A stretch of 64,000 bases of DNA from an uncultured Nitrospinaceae bacterium (GTDB lineage: Bacteria; UBA8248). The stretch lies in the NCBI GenBank assembly GCA_964005815.1, contig CAXFSR010000017.1, positions 1 to 64,000 on the forward strand, in the 5' to 3' direction. Position 1 is the first letter of the stretch, and every line of letters starts with the position of its first letter. Below, one piece after another: positions 51,402 to 63,942 of the stretch. Position numbers and translations under genes: made by a program. The notes beneath the pieces were generated by a model. That model saw nothing but the letters and a program-made list of their open reading frames with translations, was not told where the DNA came from and did not search any database.

Positions 51402-54400
51402 TCAAGTAAGATCTTTATCCAAAAAAGAAGTTTCTAAGCAACTTAAAATTTGTTCAATGTACTTTGAACTTTCTTCCCATGAAACGGATACTTCCACACT
51501 GAAATCATAATTGTCATTAAAAATAATTGTTGGAATAGCAAGTAGTTTTTCTGGAAATTTATACTCTCCGGGAATTAATCTTATCCAAAGTTTTTTCCCA
51601 CTAACCCGCAAAAGTGCAATTTTCAATTGTCTAGCACGTATACGAATCCGAGTTACTTCAAAAAGACGCGAAACTTCATCCGGAAATTTTCCAAAACGTT
51701 CAAATAATTCGTCATGGATTTCATCTAGTTCAAGAATCGATTTCAAATTAGATATCCGGTGATATATTTCAAGTCTTACATCTCTTTCCTCAATCCATGA
51801 AGAAGGCATAGAACCATTAATCGGCAAAATAATTTCTGGTTCATGGAACCTAGAAGTTATTCCTTTGGCGTCATTTACTATTTCTTCTAAAATCCTACAA
51901 TACATTTCGAAACCTACGGAAGCAATATGCCCTGATTGTTTATGCCCTAGCAAATTACCTGAACCTCGTATTTCAAGATCTCTCATAGCAATTTTAAAAC
52001 CTTGTCCAACAGATCTTACATCTTGAATTGCCTGAAGTCGTTCCTTTTCCTGACCTTTTAATTTCTTAATAGAAGGAACCATTAAATATACATGAGCTTG
52101 GTGTCGGTCTCTACCTACCCTGCCACGCAGTTGATATAGTTGAGCCAAACCAAATCTATCAGCTCGATTGATTATTATGGTATTAACTGATGGAATGTCT
52201 AGTCCACTTTCTACTATCGACGTACTTAACAAAACATCTACTTCTCTAGAAACAAACTTATGCATAATCTCTTCTAATTTTTTTTCTGACATTTGACCAT
52301 GTGCTACTAAAATTTTAGATTCGGGTAAGCATTTAACTAAAAGTTCATTTATAGCATCCAAAGAACTAATTCTATTATGAACGAAAAAAACTTGTCCCCC
52401 TCTTAAAAGTTCTCTTTTTATAGCCCTAGAAATTACTTCCTCATCAAAATCACATATATACGTCCGCGGAGGAAGCCTATCTCTAGGTGGAGTCTCAATT
52501 ACACTTAAATCTCTAGTTCCTGAGAGTGCTAATTGCAGGGTTCTTGGAATAGGGGTAGCCGTAAGAGTCAAAACATCTACTCCAATACTAATTTTCTTAA
52601 ATTTTTCTTTATGACTCACTCCAAATTTATGTTCTTCATCAACTATCAACAAACCCAGATTGTGAAATGAAACATCATTTTGAAGAATCCTATGAGTTCC
52701 AATTAAAATATCAATTTTTGAATCTGAAAGTTCACCTAGAATCCTTAATTGTTCTTTCTTTGTTCTAAAACGAGACAACATTTCAACTTTTACCGGCAAA
52801 TTTTTAAATCTTTCCTTAAAAACTTCAAAATGCTGATGTGCTAAAAGTGTCGTTGGAACAACAAGTCCAACTTGTTTTCCAGAAGAAATAGATCGTGTTG
52901 CAGCACGAATTGCAACTTCTGTTTTTCCAAAACCCACATCACCACACACAAGTCGATCCATTGGGGAACCACTTTCCATATCAGAAAGTACGTCATTAAT
53001 AGCCTGAAGTTGGCCAGGTGTTTCTTCGAATTCAAAATGAGAGTTCACTTCATTTTCAAAATTCACATCAGCTTTAAATTGGAATCCTTGTGATTGATTT
53101 CTTTCTGCATAAAGACTAACAAGATCTTTCACCATCTCATTAATAGACTTCCTTACTTTATTTTTTGTCTGAGACCACCTAATACCATCTAGCTTGTCGA
53201 GTTTTGGAGAATCTGGACCACGATATTCATTAACTTTTTTAAGATCATGCATTGGGATGTAAAGCCTATCTCCTCCAAAATATTCTAGTGCCATAAATTC
53301 ATCTTTATCTTCCGAATCTTCAAAAAAGACTTCTCCAAGAAATCTACCTATTCCATATTCATCATGAACAACACAATCTCCTTTTTTTAATTCTTTGATC
53401 CACTCTGAAGAAATCTGCAAAACATTATTTTCTGTCTGCCTTTTCTTAATATTCCCAAACAAATCTTCAACTTTAAAAAACAAAATATTTTCAGAAGGAA
53501 TTCTAAGTCCAGCAGACAAAGATCCTTCTAATAAAATAAGTTGAGAAAATTTGAGTTCAGAACTATTTTCGACAGAAAAGATTGGAACTTTTATATCCCT
53601 TGCTTCCAATAAATTTTTGATTCTATATAATTCTGTTCGATCGCTAGCAACTAAAACTACTAGACACTTAGACAAAATCCATTTCTCTATCTGTTCAAAA
53701 AAATAATCGAATCTTCCTCTGAAATAATCGGTTGATTCGGTATAAAAAGGACTATTTTTTTCGATTTGTTCTGCTTTCAAACCGATATCAGAAGAAAGAG
53801 TTTCAAGCTCTAAAGTGGGCCAAAGTTCAACCAATTCAAAAAAATCATCGGGAGCAATCCATTTAAGCTTAGGGTCAAAACCTATGAGACCTCTCTCTGA
53901 GGAAAGCGAAAACTCCTCTTCTATCGAAGACCAAAACTGTTCTGATTCAGATAATAAATTTGACTTATCAGCAAAAATCCATTGAGCATTTGATGGCACA
54001 AAATCAAAAAAAGTAGAAATATCTTCTGAGAATAAGGGTGACATATTTTCAATGCCTGGAAAATATTCTTCTGATTGAAACAATTCATACATTGTTTGTA
54101 TCTTAAAATTACTATCTGAATCATCTTTCAAGAAAGATTCGAGTTTATTCGAACAAAGAACTATCTCCTCCTTACTCATCAAGATTTCTCTTGGAGGATA
54201 AAGCTCAGCTTTTTTAAAAGATCTGTTATTTCTTTGCGTGTCAGGATGAAACTTTTTTATTGAATCTATTTCATCTCCTTTTAATTCAATTCTTGTTGGC
54301 ATCTTAGAATGAGGTGAAAAAAAATCAATAATTCCACCGCGTACAGCAAATTCTCCTTTTGACTGAACTACTGAACGTTTTTCATATTTCATTTCATTTA

Positions 54401-54875
54401 GAATCATCAATAAATCTTCATGCTTAAAATGTTCCCCTTCTTTAAGTGAAGTAACTTGTCCCAGAGATTTTTTGAGATTGAATATTTTTTCTGAAATAGC
54501 TTTAAAAGTAGTTAAAAAGATTCCTCTAGCCTCACTTCTGAGGAAATTTATAGATCTAGAACGTTCACCTAAGATATCAGACGATGGGGATAAAAATGAA
54601 TAAGGGAATACATCTCTTGAAGGAAAAACATGCACACAATCATTTTCAAAAGGTGATTCATTCTGAAAATTAATAAAAATAAGCAAATTCTTTTGAATTC
54701 TTCTAATTTCTTTTTCATCTTTCCCAAGATAAATAATGGAACTAGAATTTTTTATATATAGGGAACTTAAGCACCAAGCTACCGAAGCTTCATTGAAATT
54801 TGAAACTGGAACTTTTATTTCTTTATTTTTACTATAAGGTGTTGAGGAATGACTTATTTCCATTAGACATTTCAA
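51402..54875 (-). CDS. mfd: Transcription-repair coupling factor
   Basis: RGGIIDFF, CarD-like domain, GDVGFGKTEVA, DEEH and QLRGRVGR. Confidence 0.98.
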   Translation of the reverse strand: MKCLMEISHSSTPYSKNKEIKVPVSNFNEASVAWCLSSLYIKNSSSIIYLGKDEKEIRRIQKNLLIFINFQNESPFENDCVHVFPSRDVFPYSFLSPSSDILGERSRSINFLRSEARGIFLTTFKAISEKIFNLKKSLGQVTSLKEGEHFKHEDLLMILNEMKYEKRSVVQSKGEFAVRGGIIDFFSPHSKMPTRIELKGDEIDSIKKFHPDTQRNNRSFKKAELYPPREILMSKEEIVLCSNKLESFLKDDSDSNFKIQTMYELFQSEEYFPGIENMSPLFSEDISTFFDFVPSNAQWIFADKSNLLSESEQFWSSIEEEFSLSSERGLIGFDPKLKWIAPDDFFELVELWPTLELETLSSDIGLKAEQIEKNSPFYTESTDYFRGRFDYFFEQIEKWILSKCLVVLVASDRTELYRIKNLLEARDIKVPIFSVENSSELKFSQLILLEGSLSAGLRIPSENILFFKVEDLFGNIKKRQTENNVLQISSEWIKELKKGDCVVHDEYGIGRFLGEVFFEDSEDKDEFMALEYFGGDRLYIPMHDLKKVNEYRGPDSPKLDKLDGIRWSQTKNKVRKSINEMVKDLVSLYAERNQSQGFQFKADVNFENEVNSHFEFEETPGQLQAINDVLSDMESGSPMDRLVCGDVGFGKTEVAIRAATRSISSGKQVGLVVPTTLLAHQHFEVFKERFKNLPVKVEMLSRFRTKKEQLRILGELSDSKIDILIGTHRILQNDVSFHNLGLLIVDEEHKFGVSHKEKFKKISIGVDVLTLTATPIPRTLQLALSGTRDLSVIETPPRDRLPPRTYICDFDEEVISRAIKRELLRGGQVFFVHNRISSLDAINELLVKCLPESKILVAHGQMSEKKLEEIMHKFVSREVDVLLSTSIVESGLDIPSVNTIIINRADRFGLAQLYQLRGRVGRDRHQAHVYLMVPSIKKLKGQEKERLQAIQDVRSVGQGFKIAMRDLEIRGSGNLLGHKQSGHIASVGFEMYCRILEEIVNDAKGITSRFHEPEIILPINGSMPSSWIEERDVRLEIYHRISNLKSILELDEIHDELFERFGKFPDEVSRLFEVTRIRIRARQLKIALLRVSGKKLWIRLIPGEYKFPEKLLAIPTIIFNDNYDFSVEVSVSWEESSKYIEQILSCLETSFLDKDLT

Positions 54876-54882
54876 AAAAGAA

Positions 54883-55287
54883 TCAAGACATAAAAATGTA
54901 AATTACAACCAAAAGTAATAAAAGAAAAATTGTTATATAAAAACCATTAAGGAAACTTCTTCTCTCATTTTTCAAAGTTGGTCTAAAAGATGAATCGCCC
55001 ATTACCTCATCTAATTGAAAAATTCCTTTTTCCTGATCAAATTTGGTTAAAACATGCTCGGGGTCAAGTTTAAGTGATATCGCAACTGCCTTTAAGAAAC
55101 CACGCGAAATAACATCTGCAGGCAGTGGGGAAAGATCATTTTCCTCAAAACATTCCAAATAAAATTTACGGATTTTTGTTTCGTTAGAAATTTCCTCTAG
55201 GCTCATCTTAAGACCTTCTCTAGCAGACTTAAGATAACTACCTAAACGCTCTTCATTTTCCTGAGGGCTTACTTCAATTTCATTCAT
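54883..55287 (-). CDS. RodZ-like HTH protein with C-terminal TM helix (no periplasmic domain)
   Basis: LGSYLKSARE...SLEEIS.ETKIR...RGFLK and a hydrophobic C-terminus. Confidence 0.8.
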   Translation of the reverse strand: MNEIEVSPQENEERLGSYLKSAREGLKMSLEEISNETKIRKFYLECFEENDLSPLPADVISRGFLKAVAISLKLDPEHVLTKFDQEKGIFQLDEVMGDSSFRPTLKNERRSFLNGFYITIFLLLLLVVIYIFMS

Positions 55288-55322
55288 ATTTGAACACCAA
55301 ATTTTTCAATGAAGTAAGAAAA

Positions 55323-56342
55323 TTAGAATTCACGCTGAACCGCATTAGCAAAAACTTCAAGATCTCCCATCAACTGCTTGAACATTTCGGGCTTCAAAGA
55401 CTGAGCCCCATCAGACATTGCTTGAGAAGGATCCGGATGTACTTCAATCATAAGACCATCAGCGCCACAAGCAATTGCAGCTTTAGCAAGTGGAGCAACA
55501 AATCTCCAAGCACCAGCAGCATGACTTGGATCAACGACAACTGGTAGGTGAGTAAGTTCCTTAAGAACAGGAACCGCAGTTATATCTAAAGTATTGCGAG
55601 TTGAATTTTCGAAAGTTCTAATTCCTCTTTCACATAAAACAACATTCGGATTTCCTTGACTCAAAATATATTCTGCAGACATCAGAAATTCTTCAATCGT
55701 TGTAGACATACCTCTTTTCAAGAAAACTGTCTTCTTTGTTGTACCCACTCTTTTCAACAAAGAAAAATTTTGGATATTTCTAGCACCAATCTGCAAAACA
55801 TCAGCATATTCACATACCAAATCAACATCTACAGTATCCATAACTTCTGTTTGAATTGGCAACCCTGTCTTTTCTCTAGCTTCTGCAAGAAGTTTAAGTC
55901 CTTCTTCGGCCATTCCTTGGAAACTATATGGGGATGTTCTAGGTTTATAAGCACCTCCTCTAAGAACGTGACCACCACCGTCTTTTACAGCATCAGCAGA
56001 AGATAATATTTGTTCTCTGCTTTCAACAGAACATGGTCCACCCACAACAACAATCTTTTCTCCTCCGATTGTCACACCTTCTCCCATTGGCACAATACTT
56101 CTCTCAGGCATGCCTTCAGAACTTGCAAGTTTATAAGGTTTTAAAATTGGCACTACACTTTCAACACCTGGAAGAGTAACAAGAGATTCCAGCATATTCT
56201 TTCCTCTTTCATCTCCTACAGCACCAATAACAGTTCGTAAAACACCTTGAATAAGATGCTCTTCTAGGCCTAGTTCTCTAATTCTTTCGACAATCCTTTC
56301 AATCTCATCGGGGGTAGCATTCTGCTTCATAACAACTATCAT
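55323..56342 (-). CDS. aroF: DAHP synthase, type I-beta with N-terminal regulatory domain
   Basis: [28 protein letters not shown] and DPSHA. Confidence 0.96.
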
Positions 56343-56620: not shown

Positions 56621-57769
56621 ATGTTGTTTGATTTGGATGAATCTCAAAAGATGCTGAAAGAAACTGTTAGAGAACTATCTGAAAGACACATTAAACCTAG
56701 AGCATCTGAAATTGATGAAAAAGAAGAATATCCTGAGGATATTTTTCAACTCCTTAAAGAACATGAACTATTGGGTATTTTCTTACCTGAAGAATATCAT
56801 GGGGCAGGAATGGGTTTTCTTGGAGGTTGTATAGTTATAGAAGAAATAGCAAGATTTTGCTCAAACAGTCCTCTTTTTATAGTTTTGAATATGCTTTCTA
56901 GTAGAATAATTCAACTAAGTGGAAATCAAGAACAAAAGGATCAATATCTAAAAGGTTTGGCTAAAGGAGAGTTAAGAGGCTCTTATGCCTTGACTGAACC
57001 ACATGCTGGTTCGGACGCAGGAAATATAAGGACTAGAGCATCCTTAGAAGGGGGAGAATGGGTACTGAATGGAACAAAATGTTATTGTAGCGGACCTGAC
57101 AAAGCTGATTTTATTACTGTTGCTGCAAAAACAGATTTTAACGCTGGGACTAAAGGTATCACTTACTTTATTGTACCAACTAATACAGATGGCTTCAGTA
57201 TTGGTCGTCATGAAAAAAAAATGGGAATGAAGGGCATATCTACATGTATTCTAAATTTTGAAAACGTTGCAATTCCTAAAGAAAACCAAATTGGAGAACT
57301 TAATAAAGGATTTAAATCTGCAATGATCGGATTTAATCAAATGCGTCCTGCAATAGGCGCGCGAGCTGTTGGTCTTGCTCAAGGGTGTTTCGATTATGCA
57401 AAAAACTACTCTAAGGAAAGAGAAGCTTTTGGTACTTCAATTTCTAATTTTCAGGCAATCCAATTTATGCTTGCAGATATGTTTATGCAAATTGAAGCAT
57501 CTCGACTTTTGGTGCATAAAGCAGCGAGTCTAGTGGACACAGGTCAAATAGGAAAAGAAAATGCTCGTTACTTTTCTACTGCAAAAACATTTGCTGCAGA
57601 TATGGCAATGAAAGTAGCTATAGATAGCATACAAATATTAGGAGGAGCTGGATATATGAAAGACCATCCACTAGAAAGATTCATGAGGGATGCAAAGCAA
57701 ATACAAATAGTAGAAGGAACAAGCCAAATACAGCGACTGATCATCGCAAGAAACCTTTTAGATTCATAA
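56621..57769 (+). CDS. Acyl-CoA dehydrogenase
   Basis: ALTEPHAGSD, REAFG, QILGGAGY and IVEGTSQIQR. Confidence 0.95.
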   Translation: MLFDLDESQKMLKETVRELSERHIKPRASEIDEKEEYPEDIFQLLKEHELLGIFLPEEYHGAGMGFLGGCIVIEEIARFCSNSPLFIVLNMLSSRIIQLSGNQEQKDQYLKGLAKGELRGSYALTEPHAGSDAGNIRTRASLEGGEWVLNGTKCYCSGPDKADFITVAAKTDFNAGTKGITYFIVPTNTDGFSIGRHEKKMGMKGISTCILNFENVAIPKENQIGELNKGFKSAMIGFNQMRPAIGARAVGLAQGCFDYAKNYSKEREAFGTSISNFQAIQFMLADMFMQIEASRLLVHKAASLVDTGQIGKENARYFSTAKTFAADMAMKVAIDSIQILGGAGYMKDHPLERFMRDAKQIQIVEGTSQIQRLIIARNLLDS

Positions 57770-57810: not shown

Positions 57811-58680
57811 GTGAAAAAAACATTTTCTAAGAATATAATTGAAAGTTCACTTGTTGTTATAAGAGGTGGTGGTGATATCGCTTCTGGTATAGTTCAAAAA
57901 ATATTTCGTTCTGGTTTCCCAATAATTATTACAGAAACAGAAAATCCAACTATGGTCAGAAGAACTGTCTCCTTTGCTGAGTGTATATATTCTGGCCGAA
58001 CTGAAATTGAAGGGCTATTTTCAGAAATGGTTCAGGGAGATTCATTGACTGAAAAATTTAATTCTGCTCTTAGTTTATTAGAAAAGAATATAATCCCTGT
58101 TCTAGTCGACCCAGAGTGTAAAATAGTTAAACTCGCAAAACCCCAAATCTTAATAGATGCAATTCTTGCAAAAAAAAATCTTGGCACACACAAAAATAGT
58201 GCAAAGATTGTAATTGGAGTAGGACCAGGCTTTAATGCTGGTTCAGATTGTCATGCAGTGATAGAAACTGCAAGAGGACACGATATTGGTCGGATAATTT
58301 TCAGCGGGTTCGCCTCTGAGAATACTGGAGTACCCGGACCTATTGGAGGATATACAACCGAAAGACTTCTTCGTTCTCCTGCGAAAGGCAAATTTAAATC
58401 CATTAAAAAAATAGGGGACAAAGTATCTAAAGGAGACCTTGTAGCAAAAGTAGACGAACTGGAGATTTTTTCAGAGATACCTGGTGTTATTAGAGGATTA
58501 GTTAGGGACGATCTTTCAATTCCAAAAGGGTTTAAAGTTGGAGACATTGATCCCAGAGCAAAACCTGAACACTGTATGACTATTTCAGACAAATCAAGAA
58601 GTATTGCAGGAGGCGTTCTTGAAGCAATACTCATTTTACTCAACGAGAAAACAATCAAAAAGAACGGAGTCCAAAATTGA
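57811..58680 (+). CDS. yqeB: Selenium-dependent molybdenum hydroxylase system protein YqeB
   Basis: RGGGDIASG, VRRTVSF, DAILAKKNLGT, GVGPGF, IETARGH, NTGVPG, KVGDIDPR and ISDKSRSIAGGVLEA. Confidence 0.92.
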   Translation: MKKTFSKNIIESSLVVIRGGGDIASGIVQKIFRSGFPIIITETENPTMVRRTVSFAECIYSGRTEIEGLFSEMVQGDSLTEKFNSALSLLEKNIIPVLVDPECKIVKLAKPQILIDAILAKKNLGTHKNSAKIVIGVGPGFNAGSDCHAVIETARGHDIGRIIFSGFASENTGVPGPIGGYTTERLLRSPAKGKFKSIKKIGDKVSKGDLVAKVDELEIFSEIPGVIRGLVRDDLSIPKGFKVGDIDPRAKPEHCMTISDKSRSIAGGVLEAILILLNEKTIKKNGVQN

Positions 58681-59561
58681 CTATCGAAATCCGAGAGGAA
58701 ATCACAAAAAACGGGGTATATAAAATTGGCAGAAGTGAGATAAAAATCAATGAAAATATTGACAACCCTTACGTGCCTGATTCTCAGTTTTATCTACCCG
58801 TTGGAGATGATCTAGAAAAAACTGCTTGGGCCGTAAGCAAAGGACTTCCAGTAATTCTGATTGGAGAAACAGGAGTCGGGAAAACTCTTTTAGTCCGTCA
58901 CTTGGCTCAAATGACAAACAATGGATTTCGAAGAGTAAATTTGAATGGAATGACAACAGTAGATGAATTTGTAGGTAAACTGATGATTAACGAAAAAGGC
59001 ACTTATTGGGTCAATGGAATTCTTATAGATGCAATGGAATCAGGAGATTGGCTACTTATAGACGAAATAAACGCATGCCTTCCTGAAATTGCTTTTTGTC
59101 TTCATAGTCTCCTTGACGATGACAAAATGATAGTTTTAACAGAATACGATGGAAGAATAATTAAACCACATCCAAATTTTAGAGTTTTTGCAAGCATGAA
59201 TCCTAACGAAGATAGACGCTATGCAGGAACAAAAGCTCTCAATGAAGCTTTGTTAGACCGATTTCCAGTATCTATAAGAATGGGTTATCTTCCTTACGAA
59301 ATTGAAGTCGATGTTGTAATGAATCAAAGTGGAAATATGGACAAACAATTAGTTGGGAAAATGGTAAATGTTGCAAATGACGTCAGAGAGGCCATTGAAA
59401 ATGAAAAAATCTTTTGCACTTTTAGCACAAGAAGATTAATAGATTGGGCACGTATGTCCGAATCTTTTAGCGCTTCTGAATCAGCGATTTCTACAATTTA
59501 CGGCAAAATAAATGAATTCGATGCAAAAGTTATCGAAGACATAATTGACAATTACTTTTAA
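58677..59561 (+). CDS. MoxR-class AAA+ ATPase, CbbQ/NirQ/NorQ-like
   Basis: Walker A GETGVGKT, Walker B LLIDEIN, HPNFRVFASMNP, ALLDRF and C-terminal STRRL; TTGA overlap with yqeB. Confidence 0.9.
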   Translation: MTIEIREEITKNGVYKIGRSEIKINENIDNPYVPDSQFYLPVGDDLEKTAWAVSKGLPVILIGETGVGKTLLVRHLAQMTNNGFRRVNLNGMTTVDEFVGKLMINEKGTYWVNGILIDAMESGDWLLIDEINACLPEIAFCLHSLLDDDKMIVLTEYDGRIIKPHPNFRVFASMNPNEDRRYAGTKALNEALLDRFPVSIRMGYLPYEIEVDVVMNQSGNMDKQLVGKMVNVANDVREAIENEKIFCTFSTRRLIDWARMSESFSASESAISTIYGKINEFDAKVIEDIIDNYF

Positions 59562-59572
59562 AAAATAAACCT

Positions 59573-61327
59573 ATGGAAAAAAGAAGATTACGTTTAGAAA
59601 CCTTAGCACAGATAGTTTCTAAAAATTACGACCTCAACCTTGAATACGCGAACTCTGATTCACAAAATCTATCGAATTCAAAACAACAAGACATCCAAAT
59701 TGAAAAACCTGAAACATCCCTTAAGATCCTAAGTGGAAAAACAAATGAAAATCATTTCTTGAAATACCAAAAAGGTATGACCTTAATTCAAGCTGCTCAC
59801 TTAAGATTCAAAGAAAAGAAATGGCTAACTCAGATTTTATCTGACAACAAAGAAAAACCTGGGATTTTTCGTTTGTGGCATACATTGGATGATACTAGAT
59901 GCGAGAATCTTCTAACGTCCTTTCTTCCTGGAACAAAAAAGAATCTAATAGAGTTTATTAAACCTTCTATTGAATCTGCGAACTATTCTATAAAAACAGG
60001 AGAATTACCTCTTATTCAACAAATTCAACTAGGGATTTATCTAACAGGAGCAGTTTACATACGAGAAACAACTGAAAAAGATTTAGATCTTCAAACAATG
60101 AAATTACTTGACCCAAAGATCTTAAAAACTCTAAAAAATTTAAAAAACAAAATTAAAGACGCTTGTGAAACTACAGACGGAGAAATTACTTATAAGTGTT
60201 CACACGAAATATATGATTTTCTAAACCAGCAGTTTCACGAAAAGGATAAAGAAAATTTCTCAGAGGACACACTCCTAGATTCTGAAATAGAAGGAATTGA
60301 CGAAGAAAAAAATGACTCAAATGACACCGAAGAAAATCAAACTCAAGAGGCTATAATAAACAATGAAGATCAAGAAGAATTAATCTCTTTCACTGAAGAA
60401 GAAGCAACTACATTAGGCCACTGGTCTACCCCTTGGTTTCAATTAGAAAACAAAAAGAAAGAAATCCATCCTTCTGCAGTTGTTCAAGACGAACAAACTA
60501 TTATGACACCTCCCGAGGGGAAATCATCCGAATATTCAGAAATTTTAGAAAATATTTCAAGCGAAATTAAAGTCTTAACTGCAAAACTTTTACAGATTAT
60601 TCAAGAGAGAACTTACACACGATATGTAGGAAACTACAGATCAGGAAAACTGAACGGCCATAAACTTTGGAAACAGAGACTAGAAAAATTTAACCTCTTT
60701 CAAAGAAGAGAAGAACCCGAAAAATTAGATATATGTTTCAGTTTGCTGGTTGATGAAAGTGGTAGTATGAACAGAGAATCTAAATATCTCGCAGCAAGAG
60801 AAGCTACTGTTGTATTCGCTGAAGTATTAGATCGTATTCGTGTACCTTTTGAAGTTATAGGATATTCAACCGAAAATTCAGAGGCAGCAATGGCAGCTTC
60901 ACTTGGCCATATCCCGGCTTTCAAATTTAGGCATATACGTCATTCCAAATTACAGCATAGAATATACAAATCATTTGACGATACATTTTCACATACAAAA
61001 AATAGGCTGGTAAATATTTACCCTCGCTTTAACAACTGGGATGAAGAACATCTTCTTTTTGCATTTAAAAGAATTACACAAAGAAATGAAAAGGAGAAAA
61101 TTATTATTATCACTTCAGATGGTCAGCCTAATGGTGATGCTTCACACCTTATCTCAACTGCTACTCAAATCTCAAAAAACGGTGTTAGACTCATAGGCGT
61201 AGGGGTTGTAGACTCTTTTGTCGAACAAATTTATGAAAATCATATAGTAGTTAAAGAATTGTCACAGTTGACTCAAGAGATTGTACAAATCCTAAGAAAA
61301 GAATTACTGGAAAACAAATCGATATGA
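59573..61327 (+). CDS. VWA-domain protein (CbbO/NorD/CobT-like AAA+ adaptor)
   Basis: Acidic linker, SGKL, MIDAS LLVDESGSM and ITSDGQPN; follows the AAA+ gene. Confidence 0.87.
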   Translation: MEKRRLRLETLAQIVSKNYDLNLEYANSDSQNLSNSKQQDIQIEKPETSLKILSGKTNENHFLKYQKGMTLIQAAHLRFKEKKWLTQILSDNKEKPGIFRLWHTLDDTRCENLLTSFLPGTKKNLIEFIKPSIESANYSIKTGELPLIQQIQLGIYLTGAVYIRETTEKDLDLQTMKLLDPKILKTLKNLKNKIKDACETTDGEITYKCSHEIYDFLNQQFHEKDKENFSEDTLLDSEIEGIDEEKNDSNDTEENQTQEAIINNEDQEELISFTEEEATTLGHWSTPWFQLENKKKEIHPSAVVQDEQTIMTPPEGKSSEYSEILENISSEIKVLTAKLLQIIQERTYTRYVGNYRSGKLNGHKLWKQRLEKFNLFQRREEPEKLDICFSLLVDESGSMNRESKYLAAREATVVFAEVLDRIRVPFEVIGYSTENSEAAMAASLGHIPAFKFRHIRHSKLQHRIYKSFDDTFSHTKNRLVNIYPRFNNWDEEHLLFAFKRITQRNEKEKIIIITSDGQPNGDASHLISTATQISKNGVRLIGVGVVDSFVEQIYENHIVVKELSQLTQEIVQILRKELLENKSI

Positions 61328-62172
61328 AAAACACTTTTTTCAAATCAAATTTATTAAAAGCACTCGGCATACAAAAGGGGAACACTATTTCTGTGGTTGG
61401 AGGAGGAGGCAAAACTAGTATTATCAACAAACTTGCCAAAGAAGCCTCTGAATTTCATTCATGTCCTATTTTGATTACGACTACAACAAATATCTTTTCT
61501 CCCGACAAAGAACTAAAATTTACTACTATCCTGGGCAAAGATGACACAATCGATACAATGATAAAAAAAGAAACCAGTAATAAAAAAAAAATTTTCACAC
61601 TCGCCAGGAAAAGAATCGGAGAAGAAAAAATCCCAAATCAACCTAACAAAAATCTAAAAAAAATGAAGTTGAAAGGATTCGAAAATGAAAAAATCAAACG
61701 ATTTATGTCTAAAGAGAGAATTCTTTTTGTTGAAGCTGATGGTTCTAAAGGTCTACCAATTAAAGCTCCAAATAAGAATGAACCAGTAATTCCAATGGAA
61801 TCAGACTATATTTTGGGAGTTATTGGCTTAGATGCAATCGGCTTATCTGTTTCAAAAGAAAATGTTTTTAGGTTGAAACATTTTTGTAAGATAACTGGTC
61901 TAAAAGAAAGGATGAAAATTAGCCCAGAAAGTTTAGGTCTTTTAATTAAACATCCTAATGGAATTTTTCAAAATTCTCCTAAAAATGCTAAAAAAGCTAT
62001 TATTTTGAATAAGGCTGATTATATTGAAAATCTAGACGAAATCGAAAAAATCGCATATATTATCAATGAAAAGGGAGACTTCCCTATGACACTGACAGAT
62101 AGACTTATAGTAACGAGTTGTTCTTGGAATACTAGTTTGATATATATGCATGACCAAAATCGAAATCAATAA
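61324..62172 (+). CDS. yqeC: Selenium-dependent hydroxylase accessory protein YqeC
   Basis: VVGGGGKTS, ITTTT, VEADGSKGLPIKAP..EPVIP and NKAD; ATGA overlap with the VWA gene. Confidence 0.9.
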   Translation: MKNTFFKSNLLKALGIQKGNTISVVGGGGKTSIINKLAKEASEFHSCPILITTTTNIFSPDKELKFTTILGKDDTIDTMIKKETSNKKKIFTLARKRIGEEKIPNQPNKNLKKMKLKGFENEKIKRFMSKERILFVEADGSKGLPIKAPNKNEPVIPMESDYILGVIGLDAIGLSVSKENVFRLKHFCKITGLKERMKISPESLGLLIKHPNGIFQNSPKNAKKAIILNKADYIENLDEIEKIAYIINEKGDFPMTLTDRLIVTSCSWNTSLIYMHDQNRNQ

Positions 62173-62195
62173 CTATTTGATACAGGAATTTTCAA

Positions 62196-63329
62196 ATGTC
62201 AAAGAGTATTTTCAATACCATGGAAGATTTAATACAAAAGGGTGAATCCGCTTCTATTGCAACAATAGTGAATCGTAAAGGCTCCGCGCCTATGAGCAGT
62301 GATGCAAAAATGTTAGTGCATAAAGATGGAACTATCGAGGGTACAGTCGGCGGAGGCTGTCTTGAAGCCGAGGTATGGCAAACTGCCATGGACGTTTTGG
62401 AGAACAAGAAATCAGAAAAACTCCGTTTTGACTTAACAGAGCAAGATGCAGCGGACAGCGGACATATTTGCGGAGGAATTGTCGAGATTTTCGTAGAGCC
62501 CTTAGAAAGTTACAGTATCGAACTACTTTCAGCCGTCAATAAAATTAGACGAACAGGTGGGAGTGCTGCAATGGCTACACAGATATCACCTTCTGAGAAA
62601 GAAAATAATAAACTTTTAATTTTAAAAGATGGAAGCACAGTTGGGAGTTTATCCAAATATGAAGCCGAAATTTGGAGAGAAAGTTCACGAATCATGAGAG
62701 AAGGTCAACCCATAACTTTAGAATTTGACAAACAAAAAACAGACAATAACAACTCAAAAAAAACACGTGCGACAACAGAGATCTTCGTTGAACCTATAAC
62801 TACTCAACCTAAAATTTTTCTGTTTGGAGGAGGCCACGTTTCATTTTGCGTAGCTCAAACTGCTCACATGGCAGGATTTCGCACATCTATTGTAGAAGAT
62901 AGACCTAGCTTCGCAAATAAAGAAAGATTTCCAATGGCTGAGGACTTCTACGTAGGTGAATTTCCAGAAATATTTAATTCCCTTGAAATAGACGAGTCTA
63001 GCTATCTAGCAATTATTACACGTGGACATGCAAATGATGAAATAGTTTTGGAATGGGCACTTTCTACTCCTGCTCGCTACATTGGAATGATAGGGTCTAA
63101 AAGTAAGGTGCTTCTCACATATAGACATTTGCAGGAAAAAGGCTTTAGAAGAAAAGAACTTATAGAAAAAGTACATGCTCCTATCGGCCTAGATATAGGC
63201 GCAGATAGCCCAGGAGAAATTGCTGTTTCGATCGTTGCAGAATTAATTAAAGATAGAAGACTAGGTCAAGAATTAGCTCTAAAATCAATTCAATCTAAAC
63301 GAGTACCTTTCCCAAAAGAAAAGAAATAG
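62196..63329 (+). CDS. xdhC: XdhC/CoxF-family molybdenum cofactor chaperone
   Basis: GSAP, GTVGGGCLE, CGG, FGGGHV, YIGMIGS and APIGLDIGADSPGEIA. Confidence 0.92.
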   Translation: MSKSIFNTMEDLIQKGESASIATIVNRKGSAPMSSDAKMLVHKDGTIEGTVGGGCLEAEVWQTAMDVLENKKSEKLRFDLTEQDAADSGHICGGIVEIFVEPLESYSIELLSAVNKIRRTGGSAAMATQISPSEKENNKLLILKDGSTVGSLSKYEAEIWRESSRIMREGQPITLEFDKQKTDNNNSKKTRATTEIFVEPITTQPKIFLFGGGHVSFCVAQTAHMAGFRTSIVEDRPSFANKERFPMAEDFYVGEFPEIFNSLEIDESSYLAIITRGHANDEIVLEWALSTPARYIGMIGSKSKVLLTYRHLQEKGFRRKELIEKVHAPIGLDIGADSPGEIAVSIVAELIKDRRLGQELALKSIQSKRVPFPKEKK

Positions 63330-63411: not shown

Positions 63412-63942
63412 ATGACACAAAGAGATTTCCACATGGAAGATATGAAAAAGAGATATGCAAAATTCAGTGAAATGAAACTATCCAAACAAGCTTTTGTCGA
63501 CACACGTCTTCCCGAACACGAAAGAGATTTGTACAATGTGATTGGCAATGGAGTATCTGAAGATCCTGAACTAAAACCATCGATCGATACAGTTGAAGGG
63601 TTTAATATCCACTACGTTGGTGCCGAACCAGGAAAAGGAGCAGCGTTACACACACACACTACAGTCGAAGTATTTTTTGCTATGTCTGGAAAATGGTCGG
63701 TATACTGGGGAGAAAATGGAGAAAACAATATAGAACTTGATACCTTTGATATTATTTCAGTCCCTGAAGGAGTTATGCGAGGATTCAAAAATATCGGCGA
63801 CTCATATGCAAATTTGATGGCAATTCTAGGAGGAAACGACCCTGGAAAAATAGGTTGGGCAAAATCTGTTCTTGACCTTGCCGAGAAATCTGGATTGCGC
63901 CTTGATAGTTCCGGGAAAATCGTAGAACTAAATTCTACATAA
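63412..63942 (+). CDS. Cupin-domain protein
   Basis: PGKGAALHTH...EVF...G and DIISVPEG.MRGF.N; AGGAGG SD. Confidence 0.85.
   Translation: MTQRDFHMEDMKKRYAKFSEMKLSKQAFVDTRLPEHERDLYNVIGNGVSEDPELKPSIDTVEGFNIHYVGAEPGKGAALHTHTTVEVFFAMSGKWSVYWGENGENNIELDTFDIISVPEGVMRGFKNIGDSYANLMAILGGNDPGKIGWAKSVLDLAEKSGLRLDSSGKIVELNST

Follow-up and report, generated by a model that had tools for sequence, protein, structure and literature searches.

The window studied here, a 64,000-nucleotide (nt) stretch of DNA (positions 1 to 64000 of contig CAXFSR010000017.1 from genome GCA_964005815.1), carries at positions 57811 to 63329 five genes in the order yqeB, AAA+ ATPase, VWA protein, yqeC, and xdhC. We consider it roughly two-thirds probable that these genes make up an accessory operon for molybdenum hydroxylases belonging to the xanthine oxidase family, in which the AAA+/VWA pair would work with XdhC, YqeB, and YqeC as an ATP-driven remodeler of the folded apo-hydroxylase. 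The evidence that carries this reading is the identities of the genes, the conservation of the operon, the intact motifs of the ATPase and the VWA protein, and the linkage to and co-occurrence with hydroxylases in two phyla. The genome is 2.24 Mb in size, has 35% G+C, and is 97.18% complete; its closest relatives carry the labels Nitrospinaceae or Nitrospinota metagenome-assembled genomes.

Gene identities and layout of the operon

The open reading frame (ORF) list gives the five genes as head-to-tail ORFs, all on the forward strand. The first, yqeB (57811 to 58680; 289 amino acids [aa]), is a marker of the selenium-dependent molybdenum hydroxylase trait, and its product scored 365.8 bits against TIGR03309, for which the cut-off is 220. 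The second marker of that selenium cofactor trait, yqeC (61324 to 62172; 282 aa), passed TIGR03172 (167.2 bits; cut-off, 73.05) and matched PF19842 (132.1 bits). Between the two markers lie the AAA+ and VWA genes. The AAA+ gene (58677 to 59561; 294 aa), which starts with TTG, encodes a CobS-like ATPase of the MoxR class with PF07728 (AAA_5; 98.1 bits; cut-off, 22) and PF08406 (CbbQ_C; 39 bits; cut-off, 20.6) domains. The VWA gene (59573 to 61327; 584 aa) encodes a CobT-like adaptor that matched PF11775 (CobT_C; 64.3 bits) and PF00092 (VWA; 24.5 bits). The product of the last gene, xdhC (62196 to 63329; 377 aa), belongs to the family of XdhC chaperones for molybdenum cofactor insertion. Both of its Pfam matches (PF02625, 86.5 bits; PF13478, 131.2 bits) were above the cut-offs, and its scores against two equivalog models, NF045664 (XdhC_rel_AOR; 339.2 versus 350) and TIGR02964 (120.2 versus 161.6), were below them; these matches make it a member of the XdhC family, its subfamily aside.

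The genes are closely spaced. The stop of yqeB overlaps the start of the AAA+ gene (TTGA), 11 nt separate the AAA+ and VWA genes, the ATG of yqeC overlaps the VWA stop (ATGA), and 23 nt separate yqeC and xdhC; the letters at these junctions were checked. An earlier note on this DNA had given the same genes, order, overlaps, and gaps, and the ORF list, the junction letters, and the curated models all agree with it, including the hidden Markov models for YqeB and YqeC, both of which were above their cut-offs.

Conservation of the gene order

We fetched 75 loci with an alignment of VWA homologues. Seventy of them hold members of the family, and the other five (L084 to L088) are remote partial matches. 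The complete order yqeB-AAA-VWA-yqeC-xdhC was found in 30 of the 38 Nitrospinota-type loci; the remaining 8 are cut by contig ends, and the part expected is present in each. For this reason the five-gene order cannot be put down to chance, and the single operon that the earlier note had proposed proved to be a conserved unit. Five loci of a deeper family (f4) keep only yqeB-AAA-VWA, and in all five of the genomes tested yqeC was located elsewhere in the genome.

The 27 Chloroflexota loci are organized differently and have no yqeB at the locus. In 22 of them, AAA-VWA is immediately preceded, on the same strand, by genes for a flavin adenine dinucleotide (FAD) subunit, a 2Fe-2S subunit, and a large subunit; in the other five, the sequence upstream extends for no more than 1.15 kb. 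The large subunit is split into two genes, encoding about 435 and 336 aa, and the N-terminal half matches chain A of 3hrd end to end (221 bits; the next best match, 162). The 3hrd structure is the nicotinate dehydrogenase of Eubacterium barkeri, which PMC11448449 cites as a Mo-Se enzyme. An xdhC-like gene lies about 6 kb from the pair in only 10 of the 27 loci. Each of the 70 family loci either adjoins genes for hydroxylase maturation or structure or is too short to tell.

Properties and relatives of the ATPase and its adaptor

Judged by their sequences, the two proteins are a MoxR-class AAA+/VWA pair, as the earlier note had it, with intact ATPase and metal ion-dependent adhesion site (MIDAS) motifs. 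Invariant in 60 ATPases of the family are G63-E-T-G-V-G-K-T70, D129-E130, N175, R195, and R252/R253, which we take to be Walker A, Walker B, sensor 1, the arginine finger, and sensor 2. The DxSxS of the MIDAS motif (D394-S396-S398) is invariant in 20 VWA sequences; T433 and D516, from their own invariance, would be the remaining Thr and Asp.

The VWA homologues are a compact family of about 560 to 600 aa. A structure model of the window's VWA protein (mean pLDDT, 74.1) has a helical N-domain (residues about 55 to 235), a disordered acidic linker (243 to 294), a long helix (318 to 353), a basic stretch (350 to 382), and a C-terminal VWA/MIDAS domain. The basic stretch (window positions 60620 to 60718) combines strong conservation with pLDDT values below 50, and many of its residues are invariant (R350, G353, R356, S357, G358, W366, K367, Q368, R369, L375, and F376). 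Such a combination is typical of a segment that folds only upon meeting a partner, perhaps the ATPase ring or its pore. Residues 102 to 122 of the N-domain (window positions 59876 to 59938; consensus, LWHALEDARxEN...PG) include conserved W102, D107, R109, E111, P119, and G120 and could be a binding or metal site.

The earlier note had called the ATPase CbbQ/NorQ type. That label needs revision: among solved single-domain structures, the closest relative by sequence is CobS (9ujv; 87.5 bits), with CbbQ (80.5 bits) and NorQ (76.4 bits) close behind, and the closest to the adaptor is CobT (9uka; 42.3 bits, through the VWA domain only). A fold search of the adaptor model against the Foldseek library through April 2026, in which the VWA part alone aligned, placed its C-terminal VWA part nearest to NorD in NorQD complexes (9qhd_G; E = 5e-8) and to the MIDAS domains of MDN1/Rea1.

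These likenesses raise the question of whether the pair is simply a true CobS/CobT, NorQ/NorD, or CbbQ/CbbO pair that happens to lie beside maturation genes. The CobT_C and CbbQ_C matches point that way, and one VWA homologue is labeled "cobaltochelatase CobT-related protein" at NCBI; proteins of the family carry labels of this kind or are left hypothetical. However, the ATPase reached only 85.3 bits against the CobS model TIGR01650 (cut-off, 558.55) and the VWA protein only 49.8 bits against the CobT model TIGR01651 (cut-off, 759.05). The partners are missing too. CobN (PF02514) gave no match in the 97.18%-complete genome, and in tblastn searches of it neither RbcL (one form I query) nor CbbO, NorB, or NorD gave one; the CbbQ and NorQ queries matched only the window's ATPase, at 28 to 29% identity. 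The 60 family ATPases cluster together in a tree (SH-aLRT, 98), apart from Rubisco-linked CbbQ, cNOR-linked NorQ, a cyanophage CobS-like protein, haloarchaeal MoxR, and the genome's own CoxD-like ATPase. With very long branches to the references and CobS represented by the cyanophage protein only, the tree establishes separateness and not a sister group. Together with the company kept at the 70 loci, the low scores, the partners not found, and the separate tree group largely refute such an identity, and we regard it as very improbable indeed. The pair, which is present once in the genome (tblastn), forms a separate family with sharp boundaries.

Outside the family, the ATPase is most closely related to AAA proteins of 400 aa encoded on megaplasmids of Burkholderia, Caballeronia, and Paraburkholderia (37 to 39% identity). 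At one such locus, on a plasmid of Burkholderia sp. FXe9 (L096, 5539 to 6741), the AAA gene lies among ATP-grasp genes, and the 2 kb downstream of it, where nothing is annotated, may include a VWA gene.

Candidate client enzymes

Of the 51 genomes from the window's phylum, 48 have the VWA family and 49 have yqeB. The two are on the same contig, one gene apart, in 45 of the 48, and in the other three they are on separate contigs of fragmented assemblies. Matches to PF02738 numbered 6 in the window's genome, 10 in G028, 14 in G013, and 73 in G009; G010 and G011, two 95%-complete genomes of one genus, have no such match, no pair, and no yqeB. In the genomes checked, the pair, yqeB, and hydroxylase large subunits are present or absent together.

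Because the pair lies directly behind hydroxylase structural genes in Chloroflexota, and because pair and hydroxylases are present or absent together in the window's phylum, the client is likely to be an enzyme of the xanthine oxidase family, as the earlier note had supposed. The note had also suggested a search of the genome for selD and molybdenum hydroxylase subunits; SelD and six large subunits are present, with no structural gene in the stretch around the operon that was examined.

The genome holds a second AAA+/VWA pair (C63:90926-94619; L093, 6927 to 10623), which consists of a CoxD-like ATPase and a VWA_CoxE protein (PF05762, 205.2 bits) and follows the only FAD and 2Fe-2S subunit genes of the genome. 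The earlier note had suggested that the operon may be a selenium counterpart of coxDEF, which is not supported in the form given, as there is this canonical CoxD/CoxE-type pair elsewhere in the same genome. The CoxE-like protein is found throughout the phylum (51 of 51 genomes), also in the two that lack a hydroxylase large subunit; therefore, the CoxE-like protein does not track the hydroxylases, whereas the CobST-like pair does. The CoxE-like protein on C63 may have a role other than hydroxylase maturation.

The six large-subunit genes of the window's genome are "orphans" located on C38, C42, C9 (two genes), C37, and C22, in varied catabolic neighborhoods, set against a single FAD/FeS pair. 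The 73 matches in G009 (5.2 Mb) amount to a very large expansion of the hydroxylase family. A homologue of selenoprotein B of glycine/sarcosine/betaine reductase (PF07355, 418.4 bits; C9; L090, 126 to 1175) is 5.6 kb upstream of one large-subunit gene.

The large subunit on C38 matched 3hrd_A with 288.7 and 3hrd_B with 238.1 bits, versus 351.1 bits for 4-hydroxybenzoyl-CoA reductase. This is suggestive of an enzyme like nicotinate dehydrogenase, which the tree of large subunits given below does not confirm. A complex prediction with both halves of the split large subunit and the adaptor N-domain (residues 15 to 235) scored 0.02, where the mark is 0.32, and speaks neither for nor against binding.

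Several findings weigh against the accessory-operon reading. No hydroxylase structural gene was found in about 20 kb downstream of the operon or among the upstream genes examined. Most of the co-occurrence inside the phylum reflects common descent, and it amounts to one independent contrast (one genus, two genomes), not 48. A tree of the six large subunits of the genome, the split enzyme of Chloroflexota, and the yqeB-linked enzyme was star-like, with no clear orthologue of the split enzyme. Finally, of 201 sampled Anaerolineae genomes, 116 have yqeB over the cut-off and one has the pair; since most yqeB carriers in this sample do without it, the YqeB trait does not in general require the motor.

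The selenium question

The last of these findings bears on the possibility that the pair is a machine dedicated to selenium, inserting the labile selenium ligand as the energy-requiring step of the YqeB/YqeC pathway. The operon itself invites this idea, with the pair placed between yqeB and yqeC and start/stop overlaps on both sides, and yqeB-AAA-VWA is its most conserved core, kept in 45 of 48 genomes and in the five loci of the deeper family. The genome also has the gene set of the putative selenium trait, SelD, YqeB, YqeC, and hydroxylase, all in one genome. Its SelD has one in-frame TGA (C49:38431-39390) and so is probably a selenoprotein itself. Across the phylum, SelD was found in 47 of the 51 genomes, with an in-frame TGA in 46 of the 47; the 47th is a fragment without TGA. 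The presence of SelD does not discriminate, however, because G010 and G011, with neither yqeB nor the pair, also have it.

The Chloroflexota data can be read both ways. All five of the pair-bearing Chloroflexota genomes tested have SelD, four have YqeB above the cut-off (in the fifth, a contig end leaves a fragment), and the enzyme beside the pair resembles the Mo-Se nicotinate dehydrogenase. However, 115 of the other 200 Anaerolineae in the sample carry yqeB and lack the pair, so that the co-occurrence in five of five is near the background rate. Furthermore, the Chloroflexota yqeB and yqeC genes follow a different, unsplit hydroxylase and not the one beside the pair. YqeB-dependent purine use is also described for C. 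difficile, and the paper (PMC11448449) makes no mention of such an ATPase. With this evidence, a selenium-dedicated machine is improbable, and the selenium specificity suggested in the earlier note is weakened by the Anaerolineae counts and by the enzyme that the pair adjoins. The pair goes with hydroxylases, which in Chloroflexota means one specific enzyme like nicotinate dehydrogenase, and is no general component of the YqeB trait.

A bolder proposal is that a motor descended from the class I chelatase/MoxR lineage supplies the missing energy-requiring step by which labile selenium is placed on molybdenum, and that in Nitrospinota a single copy serves all of the paralogous hydroxylases of a genome (6 to 73 large subunits). 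We hold this to be doubtful. If true, selenium-cofactor insertion would be motor-driven remodeling of a folded enzyme and not a simple chemical exchange.

The motor might also act on a cofactor-holding accessory protein, YqeB or XdhC, and not on the hydroxylase, in a chelatase-like system of three parts. CobS and CobT are, as given above, the closest solved relatives of the pair, and the tight coupling of yqeB and the AAA+ gene is conserved; in CobNST, according to a published description, ATP makes the VWA domain of CobT dock on the pore of CobS, and the energy of the motor is passed to CobN, the substrate-binding unit. The arrangement in Chloroflexota argues against it, since there the pair is beside the structural genes, yqeB is elsewhere, and the xdhC-like gene, at the 10 loci that have one, is some distance off. 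We find action on an accessory protein quite unlikely.

A second gene of the YqeC family (PF19842, 112.4 bits; 28% identity with the yqeC of the operon) is present on C24 (L094, 5422 to 6240), between genes for an iron alcohol dehydrogenase and an M20 peptidase.

Surroundings of the operon

Upstream of yqeB, with a gap of 41 nt, is an acyl-CoA dehydrogenase gene (acd; 56621 to 57769, forward strand; Pfam Acyl-CoA_dh_N/M/1). Of the 38 Nitrospinota-type loci, 26 have an acd homologue upstream, on the strand of the operon. Downstream, a cupin-domain gene (63412 to 63942, forward strand; PF07883, 29.6 bits) starts 82 nt past xdhC; a cupin gene also follows xdhC in one close relative (L015). Because both neighbors are this near and on the same strand, the transcription unit may exceed five genes, and acd is possibly its first gene, lying outside the maturation set.

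Metatranscriptome contigs from two RNA libraries of one sample cover parts of all of the genes. Contigs from the RNA libraries span the acd/yqeB, yqeB/AAA, and VWA/yqeC junctions at identities of at least 95%, which is weak evidence, as such libraries can contain DNA and contigs are no proof of a single transcript. A scan for promoters and terminators gave counts (17 versus 23.1 and 4 versus 4.1 in shuffled sequence) at or under the shuffled level.

The strand switches at about 56.4 kb, and a divergent intergenic region of 278 nt precedes acd. On the minus strand, positions 51402 to 56342 hold ordinary genes: mfd (TIGR00580, 986.7 bits) and the genes for a RodZ-like HTH protein and a DAHP synthase.

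Proposed mechanism and its significance

If the five genes are an accessory operon as proposed, the hydroxylase structural genes that it serves would be located elsewhere in the genome. The AAA+ protein would be a catalytically competent ring ATPase, as its motifs suggest, and the 584-residue VWA protein its adaptor. If the pair works as NorQ/NorD and CobS/CobT do, the adaptor would dock on the ATPase ring through its VWA domain and C-terminal half and would hold the target with its helical N-domain. The energy of ATP hydrolysis, passed through the linker, would then loosen the surroundings of the buried molybdenum site in the folded apo-hydroxylase; XdhC could deliver the cofactor, and YqeB and YqeC could install the labile terminal selenium (or sulfur) ligand. 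In this scheme the hydroxylase large subunit as client, the contacts between domains, and the maturation step that depends on the motor are all inferred. Published precedents support it. When apo-CO dehydrogenase is already folded, the MgATP-dependent sulfuration of its Mo site requires the AAA+ protein CoxD (PMC4240915); NorQ twists the linker of NorD, permitting metal insertion (PMC13036017); and a further precedent is the ATP-induced docking of CobT on CobS mentioned above.

Thus, of the interpretation offered in the earlier note, a maturation motor for enzymes belonging to the xanthine oxidase family is retained, and exclusivity for selenium and CbbQ/NorQ ancestry are given up. In accord with the note, the homologues are linked to yqeB, yqeC, and xdhC, do not group with CbbQ or NorQ, and have no Rubisco or NorB found in the genome as a possible client.

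To our knowledge, no mechanism is known for YqeB or YqeC. A conserved ATPase with intact motifs, together with its adaptor, located between their genes is a concrete candidate for an energy-dependent maturation step. The delivery of the labile selenium (or the sulfur) to the buried Mo site of these enzymes has been called the least understood of the ways in which selenium is used (PMC11448449). There are practical consequences as well. Labels such as "cobaltochelatase CobT-related" would wrongly imply B12 synthesis, and co-expression of the operon may be needed to obtain active hydroxylases from these uncultured marine lineages.

Comparison with known systems

The selenium-dependent molybdenum hydroxylase trait, as described in 2008, shares YqeB, YqeC, and SelD with the window's genome, but neither an ATPase nor a VWA protein belongs to the trait as described. 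We found no AAA+/VWA component in the papers on YqeB and YqeC that were searched outside the subscription journals, including PMC2276186, PMC11448449, and PMC5322559. No prior description of an AAA+/VWA pair with YqeB and YqeC was found in the literature searched, whereas this kind of system is already known from CoxD/CoxE.

With NorQ/NorD and CbbQ/CbbO the pair shares a MoxR-class ATPase with AAA_5 and CbbQ_C domains and a VWA adaptor, the VWA fold being closest to that of NorD. Pulling on the adaptor linker is likely to be a principle shared with NorQD, to go by what PMC13036017 describes. The differences are the low identity to NorQ and CbbQ noted above, the separate group in the tree, and the absence of NorB and RbcL matches in the genome.

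CobS/CobT share the sizes and layout of the pair, an ATPase of about 300 aa and an adaptor, near 600 aa in length, that runs from an N-domain through an acidic linker to a VWA domain at the C terminus, as well as the CobT_C domain. However, the window's pair is far under the equivalog cut-offs, the VWA domain alone aligns with CobT, there is no CobN, and the neighbors are genes for molybdenum enzymes and not for cobalamin synthesis.

A functional parallel is that with CoxD, CoxE, and CoxF of the aerobic CO dehydrogenase of Oligotropha carboxidovorans, where an AAA+ protein, a VWA protein, and an XdhC-like protein are likewise encoded together and serve maturation of the Mo site of an enzyme of the xanthine oxidase family. 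CoxD and CoxE are nevertheless other protein families. The window's VWA protein has no match to PF05762 (VWA_CoxE; E ≤ 0.001), a model for which a few distant members of the VWA family carry a precomputed match. The window's ATPase gave no tblastn match to the genome's own CoxD-like ATPase (E ≤ 1e-4) and lies apart from it in the tree. The partners of the pair also differ, being yqeB and yqeC, and no copper step is implied. The pair would thus be a second, independent recruitment of an AAA+/VWA motor, this one from the chelatase branch, to the maturation of xanthine oxidase-family enzymes beside CoxD/CoxE.

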